From Pseudomonadota bacterium (GTDB taxonomy: Bacteria > Bdellovibrionota_B > Oligoflexia > Silvanigrellales > Silvanigrellaceae), in the NCBI GenBank assembly GCA_039799905.1, contig JBDLRP010000048.1, forward strand, positions 10,024 to 74,023: a stretch of 64,000 nt of DNA, written 5' to 3'. The position numbers and the translations under genes were made by a program. Shown piece after piece: positions 6,308 through 29,912 of this stretch. Positions within the stretch are counted from its first letter, which is position 1, and every line of letters begins with the position of its first letter. The notes under the pieces were generated by a model. The model did no database searches, was not told the DNA's origin, and was given only the letters and a program-made list of their open reading frames with translations.

Positions 6308-7784
6308 GTGGACGGAGAGTCAGGGACTGACCCGCTGCAGAGAGAATTGCCTCGGCGACAGCTCCGTCAATCGACCCCGCAGTCTGCGTTCCTGCATCCA
6401 GACCAAACACGCCGTCAGCCCATTCGAGTGTTCTGTTGTCAACAAAGGCAGTGGCGCTCGAGGGACCATAATAGGCGTTCTGAATAGCACCAAGCGGTCC
6501 GCCTTCGGAACCTTTGACAATGACAGCGATGCTGCTGACGGTATTGCTGTCCTGAACCCAGTCCTCATTGCGGCCTGAGCACGTTCTTATAAAAGCGATT
6601 CCATCCATGCCCTTTGCAATCAGAGAATTCGCCCAGACGTTGATTCCAACACCCGCTTCAATGATCGCAGTGTACATGTTTCCACTGTCGCCGCTGGGAG
6701 CACGATTCGCGTCGGGGTTGTGGAAGTCAGGAGTCTGCAAGCCGACACTCGACACAGTGCACAAACCGGTTTCAGCAAGTTTTGCAGCAATCGCCATTGA
6801 GGCCGCGCGGTCACAGTTGATCGAGCCAAGAGCATTGAAGTTCCCGTTGCCTAGGCTTGCGTAGCTGGTCTTGAGCGACTGCACTTCGACAGCAATCCTC
6901 TCGAGGTTTTCGAGCCACTGCGTTCTGACTTTCTTTGCATCTTCGTTGCCGTGCAATTCCTCAAACATTCGAATTTTGTTGGCCACCGATCCGGAAGCCT
7001 TGTCGTTCTCTTTGGGCACGTAGCTCTTGGCAATCAACTGATCGAGAGAGTTGATGAATGCAGCCGATTTTTTGCCCGATGCGACGATGGCACCGCCGTT
7101 GGGTCCGTCATCACGCACTTCGACTGCTCCGAAGGCAGCAACTCCGATCGGACTGAGCTGACCACTCGCCTGAATCATATGCGCTATGGATCCCGCTCCC
7201 GGAATCTGCCCGCGCTGATGAACACCTGTTCCCTGATAGCTGACAAACGAAGTCATTGAAATCTTATTCTGTGGAATATCTTTGATGAGCGAGTTGAAAC
7301 CCGGAAGCACCGCAGCTGTTCCATTCATCATGTACTTTCCAGTCAGCACCATGTCGCCGAACAGTTTATTTACCTTAGCTTCGGCAAACGCTGGGTGCGT
7401 CTGTGTCAGATCGGAAACCGAGCTGTTTCCAGTTCCAAAGGTCAGTGTTTGCAGCGGATTGTTTTGCGAGCTGAAACCGCTCAGGTTCAGAAAATTTCGA
7501 GGATCGTAGGATGTAGCCATGAAAATATCCAGGAAACTCACCTTCGGAAAACCCTGTGCGAGTGCCTCGGAAATAAAGATGAGCGATGGGCCGCCGCGAA
7601 ATGCGTCTTCCAGCACCGCAAGGGCATCCATTCCTTCAGCCCACGGATTCTTGGCTCTAAACTGTGCATACCAGTGTGCGAGTCCCTGCGAGACTCCGTA
7701 TTTCTGCAACCCCGACATCGCACCATAGCCGAGTCCGCCCAATAGCGCGCTCCTGAGCAGATGTCTTCTGTTGATTTGACTCAT
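6276..7784 (-). CDS. Tat-exported protein, DUF1501/DUF1552-like by architecture and context
   Basis: N-terminal INRRHLL twin-arginine signal; DFH motif; located among CxxCH lipoprotein genes. Confidence 0.55.
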   Translation of the reverse strand: MSQINRRHLLRSALLGGLGYGAMSGLQKYGVSQGLAHWYAQFRAKNPWAEGMDALAVLEDAFRGGPSLIFISEALAQGFPKVSFLDIFMATSYDPRNFLNLSGFSSQNNPLQTLTFGTGNSSVSDLTQTHPAFAEAKVNKLFGDMVLTGKYMMNGTAAVLPGFNSLIKDIPQNKISMTSFVSYQGTGVHQRGQIPGAGSIAHMIQASGQLSPIGVAAFGAVEVRDDGPNGGAIVASGKKSAAFINSLDQLIAKSYVPKENDKASGSVANKIRMFEELHGNEDAKKVRTQWLENLERIAVEVQSLKTSYASLGNGNFNALGSINCDRAASMAIAAKLAETGLCTVSSVGLQTPDFHNPDANRAPSGDSGNMYTAIIEAGVGINVWANSLIAKGMDGIAFIRTCSGRNEDWVQDSNTVSSIAVIVKGSEGGPLGAIQNAYYGPSSATAFVDNRTLEWADGVFGLDAGTQTAGSIDGAVAEAILSAAGQSLTLRPRDKVGKFRKG

Positions 7785-7823
7785 GGCGAAAGCCCCCTTC
7801 GATTCCGATTCAAACTTTTTCTT

Positions 7824-8498
7824 TCAACGCAATTCTGCAAACGTAGCCGAGGCAATGAACGCAGCGAGAATCTCGCGCTTCTTGGCGACATCAGCCACGC
7901 TGCACTCGGCAGCAAATTTGCCTGCCAATGGTCCTACGTCTGCATCCGAATAGGCCGGTATGCAGCGCTGCAGAATCTGTTTTGCTTTTTCCTCGGTCGA
8001 GCAGTCGCAGCGCGAGTCGGGACTGTTGAAGTTGCAGTTCCACGCGACAACATCGGCAACCGTCGCAAGTGCACCCATGTATGTGAGTGTCAGGTAACCT
8101 GCTGCCGTATCGACACGCGACACCCTCATTGGGTCGTACAGATCGCCAGCAAGCACTTCGATTATGTCTGACCGGCCCGCCGCCGCCTGAAAGTTTTGTC
8201 CGAGTATGGCCTTTCTTCCCTCTCCGCCGCCGCCGGAGATCATTTCCGGCTTGATTGCCAGCAGCCCATCCTGAAGACATTCGTTAATCGACCCGCGGAG
8301 AATTTCGCTGTTCTTGACAAGAAAACCCGGGGCGCCAAGAAAGTAATTGAACCTGCTTATCTTTTGTTTGGAGAGCTCCTTTGCTCCCGAGCTTCCACCT
8401 TGTGCGACGTTGACATTCGTGTCACCCGATTTTTTTGAACACGCCGCCGCCAGCGCGACAAGCGCGCATACACCGGCTGCATTGAGTAACTTGCGCAT
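7824..8498 (-). CDS. Hypothetical Cys-rich lipoprotein
   Basis: MRKLLNAAGVCALVALAAAC lipoprotein signal; ATG 8498 preceded by a G-rich SD. Confidence 0.75.
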   Translation of the reverse strand: MRKLLNAAGVCALVALAAACSKKSGDTNVNVAQGGSSGAKELSKQKISRFNYFLGAPGFLVKNSEILRGSINECLQDGLLAIKPEMISGGGGEGRKAILGQNFQAAAGRSDIIEVLAGDLYDPMRVSRVDTAAGYLTLTYMGALATVADVVAWNCNFNSPDSRCDCSTEEKAKQILQRCIPAYSDADVGPLAGKFAAECSVADVAKKREILAAFIASATFAELR

Positions 8499-8515: not shown

Positions 8516-10444
8516 TTAACGTCCAGAACATGCAAACGATTCGGTTTGGAAATAGGCTTTCATCATCGGCAGCAGCAATCCGTCGTTGCTGCTGAACGCT
8601 GCACTCACATCGCGGATGATCTCAATGTTCGTCGAGTTCGTGTTTGCGAAAGTGCTTGGTAAAAATCTCGTCAGACCACGCACGGTCGCAACACCCTTCA
8701 CGGGAGTGTCGGCGGTGTCGTTTTGGTGAATCAAAATATCGGCATAGCGCGCCAGATCATTTGCATACTTTGCCTTATCCATGTTGAGCGGGTCCGACGG
8801 ATCCGGAAAACAAGTCGCCTGCTCACTATTGTCGAGCTCTTCAAGGAGCTGACGGTAGAACGCAGGGTCAATGAATTTGAACTCGGTGGCAGACGAGTCT
8901 GTATGTGTGATGTGCGTGCGGTCATCAGGAGTGTTGTTGTTCGCGCGGACCGGCTGGATGAGATTCATGTCCGCATAGACTTTAACGGGGTTACCGTTGG
9001 CCGAGTTCATCATGCGAGGAAATATAATCTCACCCGAAAACCCGAATGGCCTGAAGACGACCGATGCTGCCGCAAGGTGGCGGTTCAGGTGACATCCCTG
9101 ACACACACGGCCATAAAACGGAATCGCAATCGCACCCCATGCAGAACGTTCGGAGCTCAGGTCGCCCTTCTTTTTGACAAACCAGCGCTTGTCGGCAGTC
9201 ACCTCCAGACACTGTGGGATTGGGCGTGGTTTTTCACCAGACACACCATCCGTGTTGGCCATCAAGACTTCACCGAAAATGACCTGATGGGTATCTCCTC
9301 CGCGGCCATAGTTGTTGTTGCTTTGAAACATCGCCGTTGGTTTTGAGACAAGAAAACCACGCGTGCCGAAAAAGTTCCCACGCTTTGCGCTCAAGGTACA
9401 CTCAGCCCATGTTCCAGCGGCTGGTGTTGCACAGGTTTCACGGTACTTTTCCTGCATCGGCTGGGGTAACGCATTCACCTCGCCTGCAACGGAATTGTAG
9501 AGCGGGGCCGTATTGGAAGTCACCATCACTTTGTTCATCAAGAACAATTGCGGGTACGAAACCTTCTCGTAGTTTGCCTTCACCAGCTGCGCAAACTCCG
9601 ACTGCAGATCCTCGACGGCTGCAGGCGGAAGCGGAGGCTCAACAGTTTTTCCGTTTACGCCTATTGCACCGACGTTGGCAATCTTCTGTGCCAGTCCAAC
9701 GACAGCCACATCCTCAAACTTCTTTTTCAGATCATCTCTGGAAAGAAGCACGTCGACAACCTTTTTCCTGACTTCGGCACTCGCCGGAGCATTCTTTTCA
9801 GATTCGCTCAAAAGGTCTCTTTCGAATGGCTCTAGCGGATTTATTTGTCTGCCCAGCGCGCGGCTCATGAAACGATTTTGGAAATCCCATCCGGTGATGA
9901 TCTTTTCGCATTTTGTGTTGAGTTGAACTTCAATATTGGAGCGGAATTCCGGTCGAGTTCCGAATTTGATTTCCGCCTCGCGGACCGCGCCCGGTAGTGA
10001 ATCTTGAAACCATGCAATCAGGTTGGGAAGTTTCTTCGCCTGATTCGCATCTTTAAAATCGGGCGGCATGGCCGAAGGCGAATCATTTTTTTTGAGGTGC
10101 TTGTGGACGAGCGCCTGATAGGCGGTCTGATTGAGCGCGGAGCCATCAAGCCAGCTTGCGTCCTTGAGGAGAATTTCCCGCGCAGGCATGGAGAATGCTG
10201 CCGCAAGTGGTTTTCCTGGACCGTGACACTCAAAACAGTTCTGGTCCATGAACTCAAGCGCTTCGCGGGTGCTCATTGGCGTCGGACGGCCCGAGGAGTG
10301 CTGATCCGAAACGCCCGTAAGACCACGTTTGACTGTTGTGATATCGTTTTTTGGGTTTGAACTGCAGGACGCCGCCACACCGGCGAACATTACAAAAAGC
10401 ATTCGGCACGCTAAAAAAGGTTTTCTTTTCTGAACTGCAACCAT
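8516..10444 (-). CDS. Diheme (2x CxxCH) lipoprotein, planctomycete-cytochrome/DUF1588-like
   Basis: Lipobox AASC; CFECH...AMPP; RGNFFGTRGFL; CQGCH. Confidence 0.7.
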   Translation of the reverse strand: MVAVQKRKPFLACRMLFVMFAGVAASCSSNPKNDITTVKRGLTGVSDQHSSGRPTPMSTREALEFMDQNCFECHGPGKPLAAAFSMPAREILLKDASWLDGSALNQTAYQALVHKHLKKNDSPSAMPPDFKDANQAKKLPNLIAWFQDSLPGAVREAEIKFGTRPEFRSNIEVQLNTKCEKIITGWDFQNRFMSRALGRQINPLEPFERDLLSESEKNAPASAEVRKKVVDVLLSRDDLKKKFEDVAVVGLAQKIANVGAIGVNGKTVEPPLPPAAVEDLQSEFAQLVKANYEKVSYPQLFLMNKVMVTSNTAPLYNSVAGEVNALPQPMQEKYRETCATPAAGTWAECTLSAKRGNFFGTRGFLVSKPTAMFQSNNNYGRGGDTHQVIFGEVLMANTDGVSGEKPRPIPQCLEVTADKRWFVKKKGDLSSERSAWGAIAIPFYGRVCQGCHLNRHLAAASVVFRPFGFSGEIIFPRMMNSANGNPVKVYADMNLIQPVRANNNTPDDRTHITHTDSSATEFKFIDPAFYRQLLEELDNSEQATCFPDPSDPLNMDKAKYANDLARYADILIHQNDTADTPVKGVATVRGLTRFLPSTFANTNSTNIEIIRDVSAAFSSNDGLLLPMMKAYFQTESFACSGR

Positions 10445-14799: not shown

Positions 14800-15471
14800 T
14801 TAATCCAATGAATCATTCAATGCGCTCAGATTTTCGAGCCACGCCATCACTGTGCGCACATCAGCCTGCGCGATGAGCCCCATCGACTGCGCAACGGTGA
14901 GAATTTTGTGAGTCTCGAAAAGAGGCTTGAAGGGAATCATCAGATGATCAAATTTTCTGTGAGACGAGGGAATGCCATGTGTGGTGACACTCGATGCCAG
15001 CACGATGTTTGTTTGAAGCTGGCGGAGCACCTCAACTGATTTCAAAAGGCTTTGTCCGGTTGTCAGCATATCGTCGACAACAAGGTGGGGTTTTGAGGGA
15101 GTGAATTCTCCTTCCACCATCTGCTGCAATCCATGCCCCTTGGGCTTTTGCCGGACGTAGACAAAATCCGAATCCCACAAATTCGCCAGACACATGGCGG
15201 GTGCGAGACCTGCGGTGGCAGTGCCGACACAGACAACATCACGCGGCCGCAGGCCCAACGCATTCAATTCGCGCTCAAGCACAGCCGCCCAAGCGGCAAC
15301 GAGAGCCTTGCGCAACGCCGGCGCCGTGAACGCACGACGGTGATCGAGATAAATCGGAGCCTTTGCCCCACTCGACAAAACAAACGGTGAGGTCGAATCC
15401 ACCTTGATGACACCATGCGCAAAAAATAAATCGACTATCGTGGATTCTCTGGCATCTGCACTGCCTGTCAT
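14800..15471 (-). CDS. pyrE: Orotate phosphoribosyltransferase
   Basis: FVLSSG..PIYLDHR, YVRQKPKGHG, PRPP motif VVDDMLTTGQS. Confidence 0.9.
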   Translation of the reverse strand: MTGSADARESTIVDLFFAHGVIKVDSTSPFVLSSGAKAPIYLDHRRAFTAPALRKALVAAWAAVLERELNALGLRPRDVVCVGTATAGLAPAMCLANLWDSDFVYVRQKPKGHGLQQMVEGEFTPSKPHLVVDDMLTTGQSLLKSVEVLRQLQTNIVLASSVTTHGIPSSHRKFDHLMIPFKPLFETHKILTVAQSMGLIAQADVRTVMAWLENLSALNDSLD

Positions 15472-16637
15472 AGTGAATTCCTGTTCTCAAATTTAACGTT
15501 CAGCACACGGGCGCATTCTGCCGCGAACTGCAAATTCCACATCGCACCGGTGGCAGCATGTACCACATCGACACCCGCATCGAGAAATCTTTGTACATCC
15601 TGAGCTGATGAAATCCCGCCGACGCCAATCAATGCAAAGTTGTCGGGCAGAAGTCCCAAGGACTGCCTGGCACTTTGCAATTGCGTGAGCAAGCGGAGTG
15701 ACTGCTCGCGAATGGCGCTTCCGCAGACTCCCCCATGTTCGGCTCCCGAACCCAAAGCACGGCTGCCGTCAGGTGTGACGATCGTCGCGCTGACGGTGTT
15801 GATGGCGCTCACTCCATGGGCATAGCGTGCAACGAGTTCTACTGTTTTAAGAATGTTGCCTTCGGGAACCACGCCCAACTTGATAATCAGACGAATGTCA
15901 GGAAAACCGCTGAGCCCTTCTGCGGCCGCGCGCAAGGTTTCTGCAAGGGCGTTAATATCTGTGTAAATCGGAGCACCTGATTCATTGGGACAGCTGACGT
16001 TCATTTCAAGGATCCGTCCGCCCTTCAGGTTGACACATTGTGCCGCCATTTGTGCGGTGCGGGATGTGTCATCGAGAAAGTCATGCCAGTGGGAGCCGGA
16101 CTCGCGGGTGCCCTGAAAACTCAGCACAGTGCAACGACCGCGCGCATATGCAAGCTCGTTCAGATGAGAATAATCATCGCCCCACTCCTTTGCCGACAAA
16201 CTCGGTACGCCGAAAGCGTTGGTGATGCTCAGGCGATCGCGCAGGTACGGATCGCGGAGGTCCTGCTGAGAGAGCGGCAACACCCGAACCTTTGGCCGCG
16301 GCTGCTGGCTGCCCTCTGTGCTGCTCAGTTGGCAATTCTCCTGTTCGCCGGCGGTCTCGAGGCGAAGGACGTTGGGCCACGGATGACTCTGCCATTTCCT
16401 GCTGCGCACTGTTTTGTAGACCGGCATGCAAAAACCGGCATTGAGTGCAACGTTCACGTAGGCAGAAGACAGCAGCGGGCCCGCGGGAATCCCGAGCGGG
16501 AGATAGAGCGGCAGACCGAGAAGCGAAAACCGCGGCTCACCGCTGAATTGACCACACGGAAAGACTCCGTCGCGATTCCACTCAACCGCGGGCCCGTTGC
16601 GGAGATTTTCGTCGTAGCTGAGCTGCGGATTGTACAT
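15468..16637 (-). CDS. pyrD: Class 1-like dihydroorotate dehydrogenase (divergent)
   Basis: PAGP, KT, TNAFG, EMNVSCPN (active-site Cys), KL, INT, GGVCG, IGVGGI; overlaps pyrE (ATGA). Confidence 0.75.
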   Translation of the reverse strand: MYNPQLSYDENLRNGPAVEWNRDGVFPCGQFSGEPRFSLLGLPLYLPLGIPAGPLLSSAYVNVALNAGFCMPVYKTVRSRKWQSHPWPNVLRLETAGEQENCQLSSTEGSQQPRPKVRVLPLSQQDLRDPYLRDRLSITNAFGVPSLSAKEWGDDYSHLNELAYARGRCTVLSFQGTRESGSHWHDFLDDTSRTAQMAAQCVNLKGGRILEMNVSCPNESGAPIYTDINALAETLRAAAEGLSGFPDIRLIIKLGVVPEGNILKTVELVARYAHGVSAINTVSATIVTPDGSRALGSGAEHGGVCGSAIREQSLRLLTQLQSARQSLGLLPDNFALIGVGGISSAQDVQRFLDAGVDVVHAATGAMWNLQFAAECARVLNVKFENRNSL

Positions 16638-17635
16638 CAGGCCAGTCCCAATACTCTGCGTCCGTTGTCGGTGGCAATCCGGATGAGTTCCTGTGAGTCG
16701 TAAAAGTGTGTCGCCTCAAGGAGCATTCTCAACTCGACCATCAGATCGCCGTCGGCGAATGGTTTGTAAATGTCGGCAATGTTGTCCGAGCCAATGGCAA
16801 CACACAACCCTGCGGGAATCATTTCGTCAATCGGCGTGATTGCGTTGTGGGTCGGTGTGAGAACCTCGTTGCGGCGTGCATCGAGCCATGCGCCCGGGCA
16901 GGCAACGAAACTCAGACCCGCATCGCGACAAAGTTTGTAGAGTTCCTGACGGTACGCCTTCGGCTGACAGCCGATACTGATTCCATGAACGGCCGTCACC
17001 TGACCTTCGACGCCGTGTCGAATGACAGCCCGTGCGAGCTGTTCTGTCTCGCGTTCCGAAGGGTCGTTGTTTTGATCGACGTGAACATGAACGCGCTTGC
17101 CGGTGCTTTTGGCTGCGCTTAAAAGTACATCCAAATGCTCGGCCTCGCGCCCTCGATCGGCACCCGGCAAGCCGCCAATCACGTCGACCTTTTCCAGGGC
17201 AGTCTCAAAATAGGAACGCGCCTCAGGGGCCAAGACACCTTTGAGTGTCTGGCACGCAAGCAGCAATTTCATTTGAAGCTTTTGTGCGGCGTAATCCTTC
17301 GCGCGTTCGGCGGCCTGCAAAGCGCGCGTTCCTGCAACGGGGTCGCAATCGACAAAAGTCAGGGCCAGGCGAACACCGAACTCATGCTGCGCACGCAGTG
17401 CCGATGTGATGTGCGCAAAGTATTCATCCTCACTCGTGACACGCTTCCAAGCATCAACCAACTGCCACTTTTCGTGCAACGTGCGCTCGACAGTGGCCGA
17501 CTGTTGGCCGGAATCCGGTAGGTCCGCTGGCGTCACCGAATAAGCACGATCAAAGTGCGCGTGCGCATTGACGAATCCGCCTGCAGAAATAATTTTCTGA
17601 CGCAACTGCGCCACGGGCATCCAGTACATCGTCAT
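16637..17635 (-). CDS. Cytosine-deaminase-like metal-dependent amidohydrolase with HxxQ instead of HxxE
   Basis: FVNAHAHFDR (HxH), HVHVDQ, TAVHG, GSDNIAD; short (332 aa), starting almost directly at the barrel. Confidence 0.85.
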   Translation of the reverse strand: MTMYWMPVAQLRQKIISAGGFVNAHAHFDRAYSVTPADLPDSGQQSATVERTLHEKWQLVDAWKRVTSEDEYFAHITSALRAQHEFGVRLALTFVDCDPVAGTRALQAAERAKDYAAQKLQMKLLLACQTLKGVLAPEARSYFETALEKVDVIGGLPGADRGREAEHLDVLLSAAKSTGKRVHVHVDQNNDPSERETEQLARAVIRHGVEGQVTAVHGISIGCQPKAYRQELYKLCRDAGLSFVACPGAWLDARRNEVLTPTHNAITPIDEMIPAGLCVAIGSDNIADIYKPFADGDLMVELRMLLEATHFYDSQELIRIATDNGRRVLGLA

Positions 17636-19293
17636 ACTCCGTTCATCAGTGCAGGTTTTTGCTGCTCCGTGCGCGCTGCTGATGGCTTGCGAACCTGAGT
17701 TTTGAGCCGCTCGCAGATATTGCTGAGCACATCATATTCACTGACCAGCTGCACACCGTTGATGACGCTCCACTTACGAATCTCGGTTCCGTCGCGGACT
17801 TCGACATTGTTGTTTTCGGGACTCATCACATTCACGATGAGGTCGAAACGATTCTGTTTGAGCAAATCAATTAAGTTGGGTTTCTTGCTTGCATCCGAAA
17901 CCTTGTAAACACAAACCGCAGAGACACCCGCCTGCTGCAAAACCGCATGGGTTCCTTCGGTTGCAAACAGCACAAAACCACTCTCGGCTAGCTTGGCCAC
18001 CAACGGCAGGAAGCGCTGCTTCTGTTCGACACTTCCAATCGAAATGAGCGCGTACCGCTCGGTCTCGCGTGCCATGCGCATCTGCATTGTATAGATTTCT
18101 GTGAACGCGGCCGACGCATTTTGGTTGAACGCATTGCTCTTCATGAAGGTTGCAAGCTTCTCGTCAAACAAGCTGTTGGGAGTTTCAACCGCCACAGCCT
18201 CGGCGCGGCCCTTGAACAGGCGAACGGTGACTGTACCGGTCACTTTTTCATTCACGGCGTCGATGTACATGTTGAGGTTGTGCATCAGCGGCTCATACCA
18301 CTGCGCTCCGTAGCAGAGGTATCCCCACTTTTGATCCACCAGCGTTTTGAATTCATTTTCCTGACGCGTGCAGACGTATTTTTCGAGTGTCTCGTGCGCT
18401 CGGACAATAACGCTGGCAGCGGGAGCTTCGTAGATTCCGCGCACTTTCAGGCCGACAACACGGTCTTCGATATGATGGGTGACACCAACGCCGTGACGCG
18501 CGCCGAGTTCGTTGAGCTGCGCAATCAGCGGCACGAGTCCCATGTCCTGACCATTGAGCTGGACGGGCAGACCTTTCAGGAAGCCAATCGTGACTGTGGA
18601 AGCTTCATTCGGCGTGTCCTCGATTGGCTTGCAAATCTGCAAAATATTTTGCAGCGGAGGAACCAATGCGGGATTTTCGATTTCTCCGCCCTCGGCGGAA
18701 ATTCCCCACATGTTGTCGTCGTAGCTGTATGGCGAATCCGCAGTCTGCTTGACAGGAATATTGTGCTTGCGTGCGTATTCGAGTTCTTCGTCGCGGCCCA
18801 TGCCCCACTCACGCACAGGTGCGATGATTTTCATTTCTGGCGCAAGCGTCAGGATACTTCCCTCAAGGCGCACCTGATCGTTGCCTTTGCCGGTGCAGCC
18901 GTGAGCAATACAGTCACAGCCTTCAGCACGCGCGACATCGACGGCAAGCTTTGCGAGAAGTGGACGTCCGAGCGGCGTGGCAAGATGATAATCACCCTGA
19001 TAACGCGCGTTGGCCTTGATCCCTTTTGCGAGATATTCGTATGCAAATGTATTTTTCGCGTCGACAACAACTGCCTTCACAGCACCAAGGCGAAGAGCCT
19101 TTTGGCGAATTTCCTCGAGATTATCCGCCTGCTGGCCGATGTCGATTGTTAGTGCGATGACCTCGGCCTGATACTCATCCTGAATCCATTTGAGCATCAC
19201 GCTCGTATCCAATCCACCCGAATACAACAGGACCACTTTACGGATTTCGCCCTTGCGGCCTTCGTAAGAGGAAACTTTCATGTAATTGTTCAT
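17632..19293 (-). CDS. argG: Argininosuccinate synthase fused to a C-terminal CarB-type MGS domain
   Basis: YSGGLDTS, HGCTGKGNDQVR, YSYDDN..GISAEGG, EDRVVGLKVRGIYEAP; from about residue 414: ALISI...FATEGT...PNLIDLL...DLIVN...DGTEIRK; ATG 19293 with GGAGGT SD. Confidence 0.92.
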   Translation of the reverse strand: MNNYMKVSSYEGRKGEIRKVVLLYSGGLDTSVMLKWIQDEYQAEVIALTIDIGQQADNLEEIRQKALRLGAVKAVVVDAKNTFAYEYLAKGIKANARYQGDYHLATPLGRPLLAKLAVDVARAEGCDCIAHGCTGKGNDQVRLEGSILTLAPEMKIIAPVREWGMGRDEELEYARKHNIPVKQTADSPYSYDDNMWGISAEGGEIENPALVPPLQNILQICKPIEDTPNEASTVTIGFLKGLPVQLNGQDMGLVPLIAQLNELGARHGVGVTHHIEDRVVGLKVRGIYEAPAASVIVRAHETLEKYVCTRQENEFKTLVDQKWGYLCYGAQWYEPLMHNLNMYIDAVNEKVTGTVTVRLFKGRAEAVAVETPNSLFDEKLATFMKSNAFNQNASAAFTEIYTMQMRMARETERYALISIGSVEQKQRFLPLVAKLAESGFVLFATEGTHAVLQQAGVSAVCVYKVSDASKKPNLIDLLKQNRFDLIVNVMSPENNNVEVRDGTEIRKWSVINGVQLVSEYDVLSNICERLKTQVRKPSAARTEQQKPALMNGV

Positions 19294-19325: not shown

Positions 19326-19353
19326 AAAAAAAAACCCGCTCAACGCGGGTTTT
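19326..19353 (-). terminator. Intrinsic terminator / possible attenuator just upstream of argG
   Basis: Minus strand reads AAAACCCGC-GTTGA-GCGGG followed by 9 T. Confidence 0.75.
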
Positions 19354-19432
19354 AAAGTTCAATTAAATGAGGGGAAACGCTGCCCTTGCTTATGTGCGAC
19401 GCTCTTCAACCAACACACTGGCATACGAAACA

Positions 19433-19464: not shown

Positions 19465-19484
19465 AAGGGAGCGGGCTTCGATTG

Positions 19485-20786
19485 TCAAGACGCCTTCTTG
19501 ATTGAAGACTCGTCTTTCGCAGGCTCTACTGCTTCTTTTTTCTCACCTGCCGGAATCGGCATCGGAATGGACGACGCCGGCGGCGGATCGACTGCCGGGA
19601 ACTGCGCCTTGATCTCGAGAATCTCATCAAGATTATCGAAAAAGATATCGACAATATCTGGATCAAAGTGACTGCCGCTGCAGTTACGCAGTTCGTCGAA
19701 GACTTTGTCAATCGGCCACGATTCTTTGTACACGCGCCGCGAACACAATGCGTCGAAGACGTCGGCCAGTGCAACCACACGCCCTTCCGCAGGAATGTCC
19801 TTGCCCTTGAGGCCGCGCGGGTATCCGCTGCCATCCCAACGTTCATGGTGTGTGTACGCAATGACTGCACCAACCTGGAGGAAGGGCGAATCCGCACCGC
19901 GCAGAACTTCGTATCCCTTCACGGTGTGCAGTTTCATGATTTCAAATTCTTCGGGCGTGAGTCGTCCAGGCTTTTTGAGCACCGCGTCAGGGGTAGATAT
20001 CTTACCCACATCATGCAGCATGGCTGCCAGCCGCATCACTTCACAAGAGTTCTCATCGTATCCCAAATGTTTATACAACAATACACTGTATCGACTCATG
20101 CGCTCGATGTGTCCGCCGGTGTCGGTGTCGTGATATTCAGATGCCTTCACGAACTTCTTCACCGTTTCGATACGTGACTGCCGCAAGTCTTCGGCCATGC
20201 GCAAATTACGCAGAACTACGCCGCATTGGCTGGAGAGTGCACGCAGATAGGATTCCACACGACTCGGAAACGGCGAAACCTCGCCGCTAAAATTTTCACC
20301 GGTGAGGTGATTGATAAGCTGCAGAACACCCAAAACATTCCCGCGTGAATCGCACATCGGTATCACCAGCATCGAACGGCTTCGATAGTTGGTCATAATG
20401 TCGAAAGATGGATTGAAACTGAACGGCGATTCCGGCGGTAAATTATAGACATCTTGAATATTGAGCGGCGTCCGCGAAGATGCGGCAAACCCTGCAGCTG
20501 TCTTGAGGTCAATCGGAAGAGTGTAATTCTTGAGTGCGGCCTTGACCCCACGCGCTTCCAAGACGCGGTTGCGGGTAAGCACGAATCTCAGCTGGTTCCC
20601 GTCTGCCTCATAAACCGTACAGCCTTCGCAATTGCCCATAATCAGTGCCGTTTCAGCCATCAGGCTGAGCAGCTCACTGGCGTCATCCATCTCACTCAGA
20701 GCGAGTCCGCTCTTCACAAGAAGATTAAGGAAATCAATGGAGTTCTCAGCGTCCTGCGCCAAAACATTCTTTGTGTTCTCGGACAT
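19485..20786 (-). CDS. GAF + HD-GYP c-di-GMP phosphodiesterase
   Basis: GAF (FNPSFD..TNYRSRSMLVIPM...GVLQLIN), AAMLHDVGK, HHERWDGSGYP, ADVFDAL; ATG 20786 with GGAG SD. Confidence 0.92.
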   Translation of the reverse strand: MSENTKNVLAQDAENSIDFLNLLVKSGLALSEMDDASELLSLMAETALIMGNCEGCTVYEADGNQLRFVLTRNRVLEARGVKAALKNYTLPIDLKTAAGFAASSRTPLNIQDVYNLPPESPFSFNPSFDIMTNYRSRSMLVIPMCDSRGNVLGVLQLINHLTGENFSGEVSPFPSRVESYLRALSSQCGVVLRNLRMAEDLRQSRIETVKKFVKASEYHDTDTGGHIERMSRYSVLLYKHLGYDENSCEVMRLAAMLHDVGKISTPDAVLKKPGRLTPEEFEIMKLHTVKGYEVLRGADSPFLQVGAVIAYTHHERWDGSGYPRGLKGKDIPAEGRVVALADVFDALCSRRVYKESWPIDKVFDELRNCSGSHFDPDIVDIFFDNLDEILEIKAQFPAVDPPPASSIPMPIPAGEKKEAVEPAKDESSIKKAS

Positions 20787-21045: not shown

Positions 21046-22656
21046 ATGATTGCGCGTTACAGCCGCCCACAGATGTCCAAGCTATGGTCCGAGGAAGCAA
21101 AATACGTCTCATGGTCCCGCGTCGAGCGGGCTCACCTCGAAGGTCTTGTCGAACGCCGCGGAGTTCCCGCAGCTGTGCTCAATGCATTCGACCATGCGAT
21201 TCAATCCACTCATCCAGACGACTACCAAAGGCGCGAGCTTGAGACTGGCCACGACGTGATTGCTTACGTCGCCGAAGTCGGTGCTGCGATGGGCGACTTT
21301 GGACGTTGGCTGCATCAAGGTCTGACGAGTTCCGACGTGCTCGACACCGCACTCAGCCTGCGCCTGCGTGAAACTCTCGAACTCCTCGACAAGCCATTGA
21401 CACAGTTGCGAACGGCCCTGGCAACACATGCATTCCGTCATAATGCGACTCCCGTGATGGGCCGCACTCACGGTATCCATGCAGAGCCGCTTTCATTCGG
21501 ACAAGTTCTCGCAGGCCATTTCGGCGAATTCCAGCGCGCACATTTGTCGCTGCTTGAGGCGCGCAAAGCCTGCTCGACCGGTAAACTTTCGGGAGCAGTC
21601 GGACAATATTCGCAACTGCATCCTGAGTATGAATCACACGTTTTGAACAAATTGAATCTGACGGCGGAACCCGTCGCGACTCAGGTGATTCCCCGTGACC
21701 GCATCCTCCGTGTCGGACAGGCGTGCGAAAGCCTCGCCAATGCAATCGACAGGTTTGCGCTCAACATGCGTCACTGGGCACGCACCGAATTGCAGGAAGT
21801 ACTTGAACCCTTCGGTGAAAAACAAAAGGGCAGTTCGGCAATGCCGCACAAGAAGAACCCCGTGCTGGCAGAAAACCTGTCAGGGCTTGCGCGTACTGTA
21901 CGCGGGTATGTGCAGATGCTCGGACAAAACACCAGCCTCTGGCACGAACGCGACATTTCGCATAGCAGCGTGGAGCGCATTGCTCTGCCTGACCTTTTTG
22001 TCACGCTCGATTTCATGACCGCCCGCTGCGCTGAGCTGATCGAAAAAATGGTTGTTCAGCCCGAAGTGATGAAGAGGAACCTCGACCGCCTGGGCGGATT
22101 GTGGGCCAGCCAGTCGGTGCTGACGCAGCTGACCAACGCCGGAATGAACCGCACCAGCGCTTACGAGCTGGTGCAAAAAATCGCGCTGCCGCTCAACATG
22201 CAGGCTGCGCGTGAAAGCCTGCCCGCAGACGCCTTTTTGAAAGCACTCGAGGCCCAGCCGGCGGTTGTCGACCTCATCGGCCGAGAACAACTCCGCAGTC
22301 TGTTCAATCTTGAAAAGTTTGTCGCACACACTGCCGGACGTTTTCTCAATGTGTTTGGAATTACGCCGGACGAGGTCACCCGTCTGCATGGCGGCAGAGC
22401 CGACGCCAAAACGATTCCTGCCTTGCAGAGGGTTTATCAGGTGACGGTCGCGCTGAATGCCGACGTGCTCGATACGGAAGCCAAAACAATTGAAGAACAC
22501 ATGCAGGCGCAGGGCCTGACGGCCCGCCTGAACCGTTCGAAAGTCTTTACCATCAGCCTTCCCGACGAAGATGAAAAAACGAATTTGTTACGTTATGTCT
22601 CGTCAGTGCTCAGAAACGAGGTCATGGAGTCCATTCACGTGGAGGTCATTCAATGA
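21046..22656 (+). CDS. purB: Adenylosuccinate lyase with C-terminal PurS-like domain
   Basis: MIARY, HDV, GLTSSD, GRTHGIHAEP, GSSAMPHKKNP, WHERDISHSSVER; last ~75 aa resemble PurS. Confidence 0.93.
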   Translation: MIARYSRPQMSKLWSEEAKYVSWSRVERAHLEGLVERRGVPAAVLNAFDHAIQSTHPDDYQRRELETGHDVIAYVAEVGAAMGDFGRWLHQGLTSSDVLDTALSLRLRETLELLDKPLTQLRTALATHAFRHNATPVMGRTHGIHAEPLSFGQVLAGHFGEFQRAHLSLLEARKACSTGKLSGAVGQYSQLHPEYESHVLNKLNLTAEPVATQVIPRDRILRVGQACESLANAIDRFALNMRHWARTELQEVLEPFGEKQKGSSAMPHKKNPVLAENLSGLARTVRGYVQMLGQNTSLWHERDISHSSVERIALPDLFVTLDFMTARCAELIEKMVVQPEVMKRNLDRLGGLWASQSVLTQLTNAGMNRTSAYELVQKIALPLNMQAARESLPADAFLKALEAQPAVVDLIGREQLRSLFNLEKFVAHTAGRFLNVFGITPDEVTRLHGGRADAKTIPALQRVYQVTVALNADVLDTEAKTIEEHMQAQGLTARLNRSKVFTISLPDEDEKTNLLRYVSSVLRNEVMESIHVEVIQ

Positions 22657-29084: not shown

Positions 29085-29912
29085 ATGAGTACAGCTGCCA
29101 TCCGCCCTACCGGCGCGCGCATTCTCTGCCTTGGTTTCGATCCGATGCCGAGGTCCGGTCTGCAAAAAGACTGGCTCGACTGCTTTGACAATCACCTCGA
29201 GTTTTTTGAACTGCTCGATCGCAAGCCGCAGTGGGTCAAACTCAATCTGGCTTTTTTCCTGCGCTGGGGCCGGCTCGGTATCGATAAACTCGAGCTTGCC
29301 TGCGAAACGCTCGGTGACAAGACAAACATTCTGCTCGACGGCAAATTTGGTGAAATCGGCAATAGCCTCAGCCATTATCTCGACTTCGCCTTTGAACACC
29401 TCAAGGCCGACGGTGTGACAGTCAATCCTTTCATGGGTGAACACATCATCGGCTCGGCGCTGCAAAAAGCACTGAGTCTGCGCGGCGCATCTTCGCGAGT
29501 CTTCGTCCTCGGAGCCACCAGCGAATTTCCGCAAAAAAAACTGGCCGAGCTGCAAAACTCATACAGCGCAATCGCGGAGGCTTGTGAGGACGCACACCTC
29601 ACGCTCGACCCAAGTGGTTCACTGGGCGCGCACCTTGGTCTGGTCGTCGGTGCAAACCGACAGGACGCCATGACCAATGAAGTCATTTTGCGCGGACAGA
29701 TGCCGCTGCTAATGCCCGGAATCGGCGCGCAGGGTGTATCGCTCGAGTCGGCAGTCAAACGCACGGCACCGCTTGCGCAGGAAATTATTTTTCCCGTGAG
29801 TCGTGCCATCTGCGAGGGCGGCAATCTCAAGCCAATCGAGATGCAACATAAATTTCAACAGATGCAGAACGAATTGGATTCACTTCTCAGTCAGCCGCGA
29901 GGTCATTCATGA
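29085..29912 (+). CDS. pyrF: Orotidine-5'-phosphate decarboxylase (divergent, type 2-like)
   Basis: LCLGFDP, VKLNLAFF, LDGKFGEIGNS, TVNPFMG, GLVVGA, PGIGAQG, SRAI. Confidence 0.85.
   Translation: MSTAAIRPTGARILCLGFDPMPRSGLQKDWLDCFDNHLEFFELLDRKPQWVKLNLAFFLRWGRLGIDKLELACETLGDKTNILLDGKFGEIGNSLSHYLDFAFEHLKADGVTVNPFMGEHIIGSALQKALSLRGASSRVFVLGATSEFPQKKLAELQNSYSAIAEACEDAHLTLDPSGSLGAHLGLVVGANRQDAMTNEVILRGQMPLLMPGIGAQGVSLESAVKRTAPLAQEIIFPVSRAICEGGNLKPIEMQHKFQQMQNELDSLLSQPRGHS

Follow-up and report, generated by a model that had tools for sequence, protein, structure and literature searches.

A fusion of argininosuccinate synthase with a CarB-type allosteric domain in Silvanigrellaceae and a candidate second route to the pyrimidine ring

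Introduction

In the canonical entry to pyrimidine synthesis, CarAB, PyrB (aspartate carbamoyltransferase, ATCase) and PyrC (dihydroorotase) lead to dihydroorotate, whose ring atoms come from aspartate and a carbamoyl group. A 2026 paper, in its accessible text, still calls carbamoyl phosphate the pyrimidine precursor in all domains of life (PMC13260591). The same text describes the arginine synthetase pathway of Thermococcus kodakarensis, in which arginine and citrulline feed pyrimidines without a carbamoyl-phosphate synthetase (CPS), carbamoyl phosphate being regenerated via ornithine transcarbamoylase. Here we describe a 64,000-nucleotide stretch of DNA (the window; positions 10,024 to 74,023 of contig JBDLRP010000048.1, assembly GCA_039799905.1) from a bacterium of the family Silvanigrellaceae. 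In it, an argininosuccinate synthase gene fused to an MGS domain (argG-MGS) is the first gene of an operon that continues with an amidohydrolase, pyrD and pyrE.

We propose that this operon probably converts citrulline and aspartate, via argininosuccinate, into dihydroorotate and ornithine under nucleotide feedback. It is likewise probable that the argG-MGS/amidohydrolase pair replaces PyrB and PyrC; we favour dihydroorotate as its direct product over carbamoyl-aspartate. The proposed route would share its end product, its downstream genes and the source of its ring atoms with the canonical entry. Unlike the latter, it would carry the carbamoyl group on citrulline, and no ATCase or dihydroorotase was found in the family by the searches described below; two relatives (G459 and G460) also show no carbamoyl phosphate route among the families searched. 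As in T. kodakarensis, arginine and citrulline would feed pyrimidines without CPS, but here carbamoyl phosphate, PyrB and PyrC would all be bypassed.

In general terms, we think it fairly likely that this is a second de novo pyrimidine route, which uses one CodA-like enzyme and no ATCase or dihydroorotase, in some genomes no carbamoyl phosphate, and in which the effector domain has moved onto the entry enzyme. It would have displaced pyrB and pyrC in Patescibacteria, in one Bdellovibrionota family and in scattered bacteria. Its parts belong to known families; if it exists, the route they make up would be a new type.

Results

The argG-MGS gene and its ArgG core

The gene occupies 17632..19293 on the minus strand (ATG at 19293) and encodes 553 aa, namely an ArgG core (residues 17-410) and a C-terminal MGS domain. 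Pfam recognised the ArgG N-domain at residues 19-180 (E 4e-65) and the C-domain at 189-407 (E 3.5e-65), and the scores exceeded the curated cut-offs of both TIGR00032 (455 vs 268) and PRK00509 (498 vs 334). Among the matches listed, 120 of 120 homologs carry both ArgG and MGS, including those from Silvanigrella aquatica, Fluviispira multicolorata and Patescibacteria. This rules out an assembly chimera or a chance tail and shows that the fusion is real.

In an alignment to the Thermus thermophilus enzyme (1J1Z), the PP-loop and the TGKGNDQ.R motif were invariant in 118-119 of 119 homologs, and every motif quoted in a preliminary description of this DNA was indeed present. The ATP, aspartate and citrulline site residues are retained, with the exception of Ser89 -> Pro (1J1Z numbering). 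Y102, N138, R142, S190, E201, E276, Y288 and Y328, which we take to be the citrulline contacts, are invariant in all 119 homologs. Compared with T. thermophilus ArgG, two changes run through the whole family: Pro107 for Ser89 and Leu/Ile143 for Phe125.

The fused protein shares the fold, the PP-loop, TGKGNDQ.R and the presumed citrulline contacts with short-type ArgG (TIGR00032, PRK00509; 1J1Z/1KH1, L. pneumophila 6XNQ). Unlike these, it has the extra MGS domain, is located in a pyr operon and usually occurs in genomes without ArgH. The core looks intact, and citrulline appears to be the likeliest substrate. It could be argued that ArgG instead uses urea or carbamate to form guanidinosuccinate or carbamoyl-aspartate, after which the hydrolase would remove ammonia or close the ring. 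Such a substrate would explain carriers of the candidate phyla radiation (CPR, Patescibacteria) that have no citrulline source; it would fit the two family-wide changes near the site (P107; L/I143), and ArgG relatives with other chemistry do exist (the nitrile synthetase ArtA). Set against this are the invariance of the presumed citrulline contacts and the citrulline-making genes that accompany the module, and we regard a small substrate as highly improbable.

Type, fold and effector site of the MGS domain

In Escherichia coli CarB, the allosteric domain comprises residues 933-1073 (complex with inosine monophosphate, IMP, 1CE8), and Ser948, Thr977 and Lys993 are linked to the action of uridine monophosphate (UMP) and IMP in the accessible text of PMC6245113. 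The ArgG-borne domain spans residues 413-533 (17695..18057, minus strand), as judged by Pfam, PDB alignment, AlphaFold and Foldseek. PF02142 matches residues 428-517 (E 1.4e-14; 54.4 bits vs a cut-off of 24.1). When isolated, the tail (17635-18054) best matched the CarB C-terminus (PRK05294 positions 944-1049, E 2e-12), ahead of PurH (E 1e-4), and its best PDB sequence matches were the human CPS1 MGS domain and E. coli CarB 945-1020. This bears out the preliminary description, which had expected Pfam to find a CarB-subtype MGS domain in the ArgG tail.

In the AlphaFold model (mean pLDDT 80.9), residues 413-533 form five strands alternating with five helices, and Foldseek matched them to the CPS MGS domain 2YVQ (TM 0.75 by target length, rmsd 2.2). 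Residues 536-545 and 551-553 have pLDDT < 50. The extent first given for the domain (17632..18054) therefore needs correction: the folded part covers about 17695-18057 and is followed by a tail of ~20 residues modelled with low confidence.

The positions paired between ArgG-MGS and E. coli CarB are S418/S948, K425/K954, T445/T974, T448/T977, K464/K993 and N488/N1015, while CarB Thr1016 and Thr1017 are absent from the ArgG domain. Of 119 homologs, 118 have K425, 119 have T445, 114 have T448 (with Ser in 5 more) and 118 have K464; position 418 is Ser in 64 and Thr in 52, and the neighbours of these residues are mostly variable. For K954, T974 and N1015 of CarB we also assume effector-site roles. 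This pattern supports a retained nucleotide site, and the domain very probably binds a nucleotide; we lean slightly towards feedback acting on ArgG itself. The CarB effector domain sits on an ATP-grasp enzyme, whereas the host here is an N-type ATP pyrophosphatase, so the relay from the MGS domain to the active site must differ from that of CarB.

The operon and its neighbourhood in other genomes

All genes of the operon are on the minus strand. The start of the amidohydrolase gene (16637..17635; PRK06886 family, metal-dependent, CodA/AtzC-like) overlaps the argG stop (ATGA). It is followed by a divergent, pyrD-like dihydroorotate dehydrogenase (15468..16637), which scores above the Pfam and below the NCBIfam cut-offs, and by an orotate phosphoribosyltransferase-like gene (pyrE, 14800..15471), for which this was the best family match, below the cut-off.

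We surveyed 80 GTDB loci carrying argG-MGS (below, G000 is the genome of the window, and other G, L and P codes denote further genomes, loci and proteins analysed). The amidohydrolase was found in 76 of them, a pyrD-like gene in 52, a phosphoribosyltransferase in 45, pyrF in 25, and a gene resembling dimethylarginine dimethylaminohydrolase or arginine deiminase (DDAH/ADI-like) in 6. No argH, argF or pyrB gene cluster occurred in at least 3 of the 80 loci, and ArgH was found in 11 of 51 carrier genomes, G000 not being one of the 11. In keeping with the preliminary description, the fusions reside in pyrimidine loci and not in arginine operons.

In 58 of the 75 loci holding both genes, the amidohydrolase lies directly downstream of argG-MGS on the same strand, and the MGS domain ends just ahead of its start, usually within 20 nt. 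Seventy of the hydrolases are of the short type and 6 of a longer one; five of the latter were scanned and were closest to the 8-oxoguanine deaminase PRK08203, below its cut-off, in the same operon slot. In one locus (L082:11544-12341, G045), which also contains a gene for an AsnRS-like core fused to MGS (see below), the amidohydrolase is split.

The amidohydrolase

Two enzymes provide the nearest chemistry: AtzC acts on a triazine ring, from which it splits off isopropylamine (PMC4577212), and N2,N2-dimethylguanine is hydrolysed by NdmH enzymes (PMC13054789), both according to the accessible parts of these papers. The window enzyme passes the cut-off of PRK06886, a family of unnamed function (377.8 vs 340), and falls far below that of CodA (93 bits vs 403). 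The closest structures were 5-methylcytosine deaminase (best), CodA and AtzC. The three-His/Asp metal site is common to AtzC, CodA, NdmH and the window enzyme, and the equivalents of AtzC His249, Gln160 and Asn304 are retained as well. The reaction type proposed here, loss of an alkylamine from a ring amidine, is that of AtzC and NdmH. Unlike the three, the window enzyme has ~330 aa and no small beta domain, and it is 24-28% identical to them; in the region of CodA Glu217 and AtzC His219-Asp220 it has Gln, and this holds for the Glu217 position in 76 of 77 family members. Prediction of a complex between ArgG-MGS and the amidohydrolase scored 0.00, which we counted neither for nor against. Additionally, protein P0349 carries a degenerate PRK06886-like domain, with several metal ligands gone, fused to dihydroorotate dehydrogenase.

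The structural match to 5-methylcytosine deaminase raises the question of salvage under pyrimidine control, in which the hydrolase would deaminate cytosine or methylcytosine, orotate or dihydroorotate would be scavenged, and ArgG would serve arginine or nitrogen handling. The upp and udk genes of G000, the CPR genomes with only late pyr genes and the 11 carriers with ArgH would agree with this. However, Gln occupies the CodA Glu217 position almost throughout, in 40 of 51 genomes the product of ArgG would have no known outlet, as ArgH was not found there, a separate argG is retained where an arginine operon exists, and the argG stop overlaps the hydrolase start in the window. We therefore find salvage distinctly unlikely.

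Pathway genes in Silvanigrellaceae

G000 is 93.8% complete. It holds a single gene of the ornithine/aspartate carbamoyltransferase (OTC/ATC) family, behind carB, and its carAB is split over two contig ends. The family's OTC/ATC gene was considered as a PyrB and rejected: two tested orthologs from relatives score 418 and 402 as OTC (vs 281) and 136-150 as ATC. The genome retains carAB-argF, arginine deiminase (catalytic motifs aligned), upp and udk; argH, argB, argC, argJ and argR were not found in it. PyrD, PyrE and PyrF are all present, the first two divergent and below NCBIfam cut-offs.

For a class-wide comparison, we took all 131 genomes of the class of G000, 33 from its own family and 98 others. 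This ArgG type and the amidohydrolase were each found in 32 of the 33 Silvanigrellaceae (the exception, G470, is 85% complete), and profile search found PyrB in none of the 33. Among the other 98, PyrB was found in 75 (E 1e-55; 51 over the cut-off), the amidohydrolase and this ArgG type in none; ArgG matches occurred in 41, all ending by residue 435. No PyrC scored over the cut-off in G000 or in five near-complete relatives, where PyrC models gave short N-terminal matches only. The canonical pair of PyrB and PyrC was thus not found in the family of G000.

Two relatives, G459 and G460 (98% and 96% complete), have arginine deiminase and the pyr operon, in G460 minus the MGS domain, and no CarB, OTC/ATC gene, carbamate kinase, ArgH or PyrC (both types) was found in them. 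Taken singly, a deiminase without OTC and an ArgG without ArgH would be dead ends; together with the hydrolase they would form a line from arginine to PyrD. In addition, G462 has a second, ordinary argG in an argG-argCJBD operon, and G445 has an argR-argG-argH-carAB-argF locus, which means that the fused copy has another job.

The arginine deiminase gene is divergent from a conserved gene of ~370 aa (together L246:5860-7332 and 7346-8491, G000 C29; also L244 and L245), which has an NAD-binding-like start and no NCBIfam match; no carbamate kinase was found. The CarB of the carAB-argF operon (G000 C26:153505-156282; L219-L225) has a decayed C-terminal allosteric domain in G000 and in 7 of 7 relatives. 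Since G445 has the decayed tail within its arginine locus, such a tail may mark an arginine-type CPS.

The proposed route

Citrulline would come from arginine deiminase or from CarAB and OTC, whose genes are present and whose flux we infer. ArgG would then join citrulline and aspartate with ATP, an activity established for its family and in keeping with the conserved site residues. Argininosuccinate would close, presumably spontaneously, to a six-membered cyclic guanidine, a 2-(alkylamino)-dihydropyrimidinone. By analogy with AtzC and NdmH, the amidohydrolase would cut ornithine off the ring to give dihydroorotate; this and the ring closure are the weakest steps. PyrD, PyrE and PyrF would complete UMP, and in genomes with OTC ornithine would return to the cycle as a carrier. 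The entry step would be regulated through the MGS domain, the likely binding site of a nucleotide such as UMP.

A variant concerns the product of the hydrolase, which might act on open-chain argininosuccinate and yield N-carbamoyl-aspartate. Only PyrB would then be replaced, and the ring would be closed by the same enzyme, by a PurH-like activity of the MGS domain or by another protein. Hydrolysis of open-chain amidines is known in the amidohydrolase superfamily (HutF), G000-G002 have an allantoinase-like enzyme with a weak PyrC score, and a protein combining an asparaginyl-tRNA synthetase (AsnRS)-like core with MGS, encoded beside the pair in four genomes, might activate a carboxylate by adenylation. 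On the other hand, the five near-complete family genomes gave nothing beyond the short PyrC matches, pyrC is broken beside fusions of MGS with the amidohydrolase (see below), and the closest hydrolase structures act on rings. Moreover, the MGS domain is much closer to CarB than to PurH, and G460 does without it. We consider this variant unlikely and retain direct release of dihydroorotate.

If true, the argininosuccinate route would add a new way of building the pyrimidine ring, would give the unnamed PRK06886 family a function, would change pyrimidine-auxotrophy calls for carrier genomes and would be a case of an allosteric domain carried over from one fold to an unrelated one. A literature search, covering few subscription papers and no supplements, found no paper on the ArgG-MGS fusion or the route. 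A term search of the accessible text of the Spirobacillus genome paper (PMC12321486) gave no mention of arginine, citrulline or UMP. It is worth stressing that the route, hard to approach in Patescibacteria, is testable in living cells, because the cultured S. aquatica and F. multicolorata carry the same fusion.

Origin and mobility of the MGS domain

In a quick ArgG tree, built from 62 selected rows and rooted at the midpoint, with no clade test, the fused genes of the family form one branch (SH-aLRT 100) nested in a CPR branch (99) and well separated from the ordinary ArgG of the family. In an MGS tree, the ArgG-borne domain groups with CPR sequences (98/91), apart from the sampled CarB domains. 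As both the ArgG core and the MGS domain group with Patescibacteria sequences, the fusion was probably imported ready-made, and transfer of the whole module from Patescibacteria is likely on this phylogenetic ground. Origin of the domain from the lineage's own CarB is unlikely, given the grouping with CPR sequences; at E 0.1, an MGS match was found in 0 of 7 Silvanigrellaceae CarB proteins vs 3 of 3 from CPR.

Profile search also revealed the same amidohydrolase with an N-terminal MGS domain in five proteins of ~480 aa (P0255, P0257, P0264, P0271, P0286), and we examined 80 metagenome loci with such fusions (L253-L332), many on short contigs. Both the hydrolase signature and the MGS site known from the argG-MGS operon recur in these fusions; positions S, K, T, G, T, K, N, D, I and R of the MGS domain are kept in 77-78 of 78. 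Most of the 80 loci show no pyrimidine gene. We observed pyrR in 4, argH with pyrD in one, and pyrC traces in 7, broken in 6: 5′-truncated in L259, L274 and L314, a C-terminal stub in L288 and L289, an N-terminal stub by eye in L258, and in L315 at a contig end, where its state is undecidable.

In many alphaproteobacteria-like loci the fused gene lies between TIGR02301 and ygfZ, which may be the usual slot of dihydroorotase in these bacteria. A dihydroorotase before ygfZ was seen in one of four plasmid-collection loci, and L288 and L289 hold their pyrC stub there. The MGS-amidohydrolase may replace pyrB and pyrC with a single gene. In L258, L259, L260 and L274, it is followed by a conserved gene of ~385 aa with a TIR-like N-terminus by eye, near pyrR or pyrC.

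The MGS clade found on ArgG also occurs at the C-terminus of an AsnRS-like core that lacks the anticodon domain and is encoded directly before pyrD (L242:7985-9502, L250:7906-9405, L252:1756-3246, L243:7016-8524, L064, L082 and L087). PyrB, ArgG and the PRK06886 hydrolase were not found in the carriers G283, G131 and G151, and this fusion is possibly a third entry route to pyrimidines. Occurrence on ArgG, on the amidohydrolase and on the AsnRS-like core indicates that the domain marks likely pyrimidine entry enzymes and is not tied to ArgG. It would follow the flux-committing enzyme, namely ArgG where this is dedicated and the amidohydrolase where the ordinary arginine pathway is the likely source of argininosuccinate.

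Carriers in Patescibacteria and the weight of the evidence

Gene content was searched in 50 of the 80 carrier genomes; some counts add G000 (n=51). PyrB scored over the cut-off in 1 of 50. The 51 genomes hold CarB in 11, a DDAH/ADI-like gene in 19 and PyrC over the cut-off in 0, a blunt threshold, as a clear CPR PyrC scores 258 vs 279; long PyrC matches occurred only in G050 and G000-G002. We call CPR-type those carriers that have genomes of 0.7-1.5 Mb and a Patescibacteria-like tree position.

In a CPR sample of 301 genomes from the class of G034, the amidohydrolase was found in 17, long-frame ArgG in 18 and both in 15; 10 of the 18 carriers came from the seed set, and the unpublished G116 is among the non-carriers. 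In the two genomes with the hydrolase and no fusion, argH adjoins the hydrolase, and ArgH running backwards could provide argininosuccinate. When any DHO_dh match is required, PyrB is present in 2 of 15 carriers vs 55 of 119 others. With PyrD restricted to class-1B-like or 360-residue forms, hand-typed by frame length, the figures are 2 of 14 vs 43 of 50, a comparison that omits 70 genomes with other dihydroorotate dehydrogenase-like genes.

Several observations weigh against the proposed route or against ArgG as the regulated step. In the whole CPR sample, PyrB occurs in 2 of 18 carriers vs 71 of 283 others (p 0.26), and the contrast is seen only among genomes with a PyrD match. G050, G132 and G286 have the argG-MGS/hydrolase pair and PyrB together, and in the first two the pair adjoins a full carAB-pyrB-pyrC cluster. 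The CPR genomes G222 and G078 hold pyrD/E/F without an entry enzyme nearby, so a missing PyrB need not imply replacement. ArgH, as noted, is present in 11 of 51 carriers. A citrulline source is rare in CPR-type carriers (DDAH/ADI-like 10 of 40, OTC-like 5 of 40), and full-length arginine deiminase, searched in two of them, was found in neither. The CPR evidence is weaker than that from Silvanigrellaceae; for the latter we claim no p value, since the pattern reflects one evolutionary event and the counts are not independent. A ready-made import would also mean that the fusion was not an independent event in Silvanigrellaceae. As to the chemistry, our literature search found no paper on cyclic argininosuccinate, and the ring-closing step has no assigned catalyst.

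Two further points concern the MGS domain itself. G460 (L232:7191-8513) is a natural deletion in which ArgG ends at 441 aa with operon and leader intact, which indicates that the domain is not needed for catalysis there. Neither argG nor pyrB was found in the 80 MGS-amidohydrolase loci, and the domain could therefore serve the hydrolase. In that case the pathway would be the same, and an ancestral MGS-amidohydrolase gene would have been split when argG joined, leaving a domain that regulates or docks in trans or is a dispensable leftover. The abundance of MGS-amidohydrolase fusions, their stricter MGS conservation and common hydrolase signature, the position of MGS just before the hydrolase start and its loss in G460 all speak for such a history; the MGS tree, which bears on the direction of the move, took in no MGS-amidohydrolase domains. 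Yet the site residues are conserved on ArgG in both lineages, and MGS on an AsnRS-like core before pyrD fits a movable entry-step regulator. We judge service to the hydrolase improbable and keep ArgG as the preferred target of the feedback.

The preliminary description had held that ArgG gained a nucleotide feedback module here and that this independently supports ArgG as the committed pyrimidine step. The CarB type, the kept UMP/IMP residues and the pyr loci agree with the first statement, except that an independent gain in this lineage is unlikely. As a marker of entry enzymes the domain favours the second, which is weakened by the import, the hydrolase fusions and the loss in G460.

The leader upstream of argG-MGS

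In the E. coli rph-pyrE attenuator, as the accessible text of PMC2784333 describes it, a translated open reading frame (ORF) ends near a terminator ahead of a pyr gene. A similar arrangement precedes argG-MGS on the minus strand: an intrinsic terminator-like hairpin with a U-tract, likely an attenuator, lies at 19326..19353, 39 nt before the argG start. A putative leader ORF of 21 codons (19359..19424), with GGGG 9 nt upstream, stops at the foot of the terminator. The leader is separate evidence of pyrimidine-type control and resembles the rph-pyrE attenuator; unlike the latter, its ORF is short, dedicated and of unconserved sequence. By this analogy, the terminator likely adds attenuation sensitive to uridine triphosphate.

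The terminator is present in 18 of 18 family loci despite differing upstream genes and in 35 of 57 CPR-type loci, and the same type was found in 28 of 400 control genes (G000 genes with an upstream gap). A short ORF with its stop 7-33 nt before the U-tract occurs in 16 of the 18 family loci. A possible -35 element, TTGACA (19483..19488, minus strand), overlaps the stop of the upstream gene; no consensus -10 accompanies it, a promoter scan of the leader found no consensus promoter, and an Rfam search of the leader gave no family at threshold. TTGAC recurs 149-183 nt upstream in 15 of the 18 loci, overlapping a stop codon in the closest relatives.

Other genes

The last gene of UMP synthesis, pyrF (orotidine monophosphate decarboxylase), lies at 29085..29912 on the plus strand, 10 kb off and within a purine cluster (G000 C48:39108-39935). 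In one genome, G304, in which ArgG, PyrB and PRK06886 were not found, a DDAH/arginine-dihydrolase-like gene (L248:6926-7714) stands directly before pyrD-pyrK-pyrF. In the window, PurB (adenylosuccinate lyase, 21046-22656) carries a C-terminal PurS domain, and the length of this fusion recurs in family loci.

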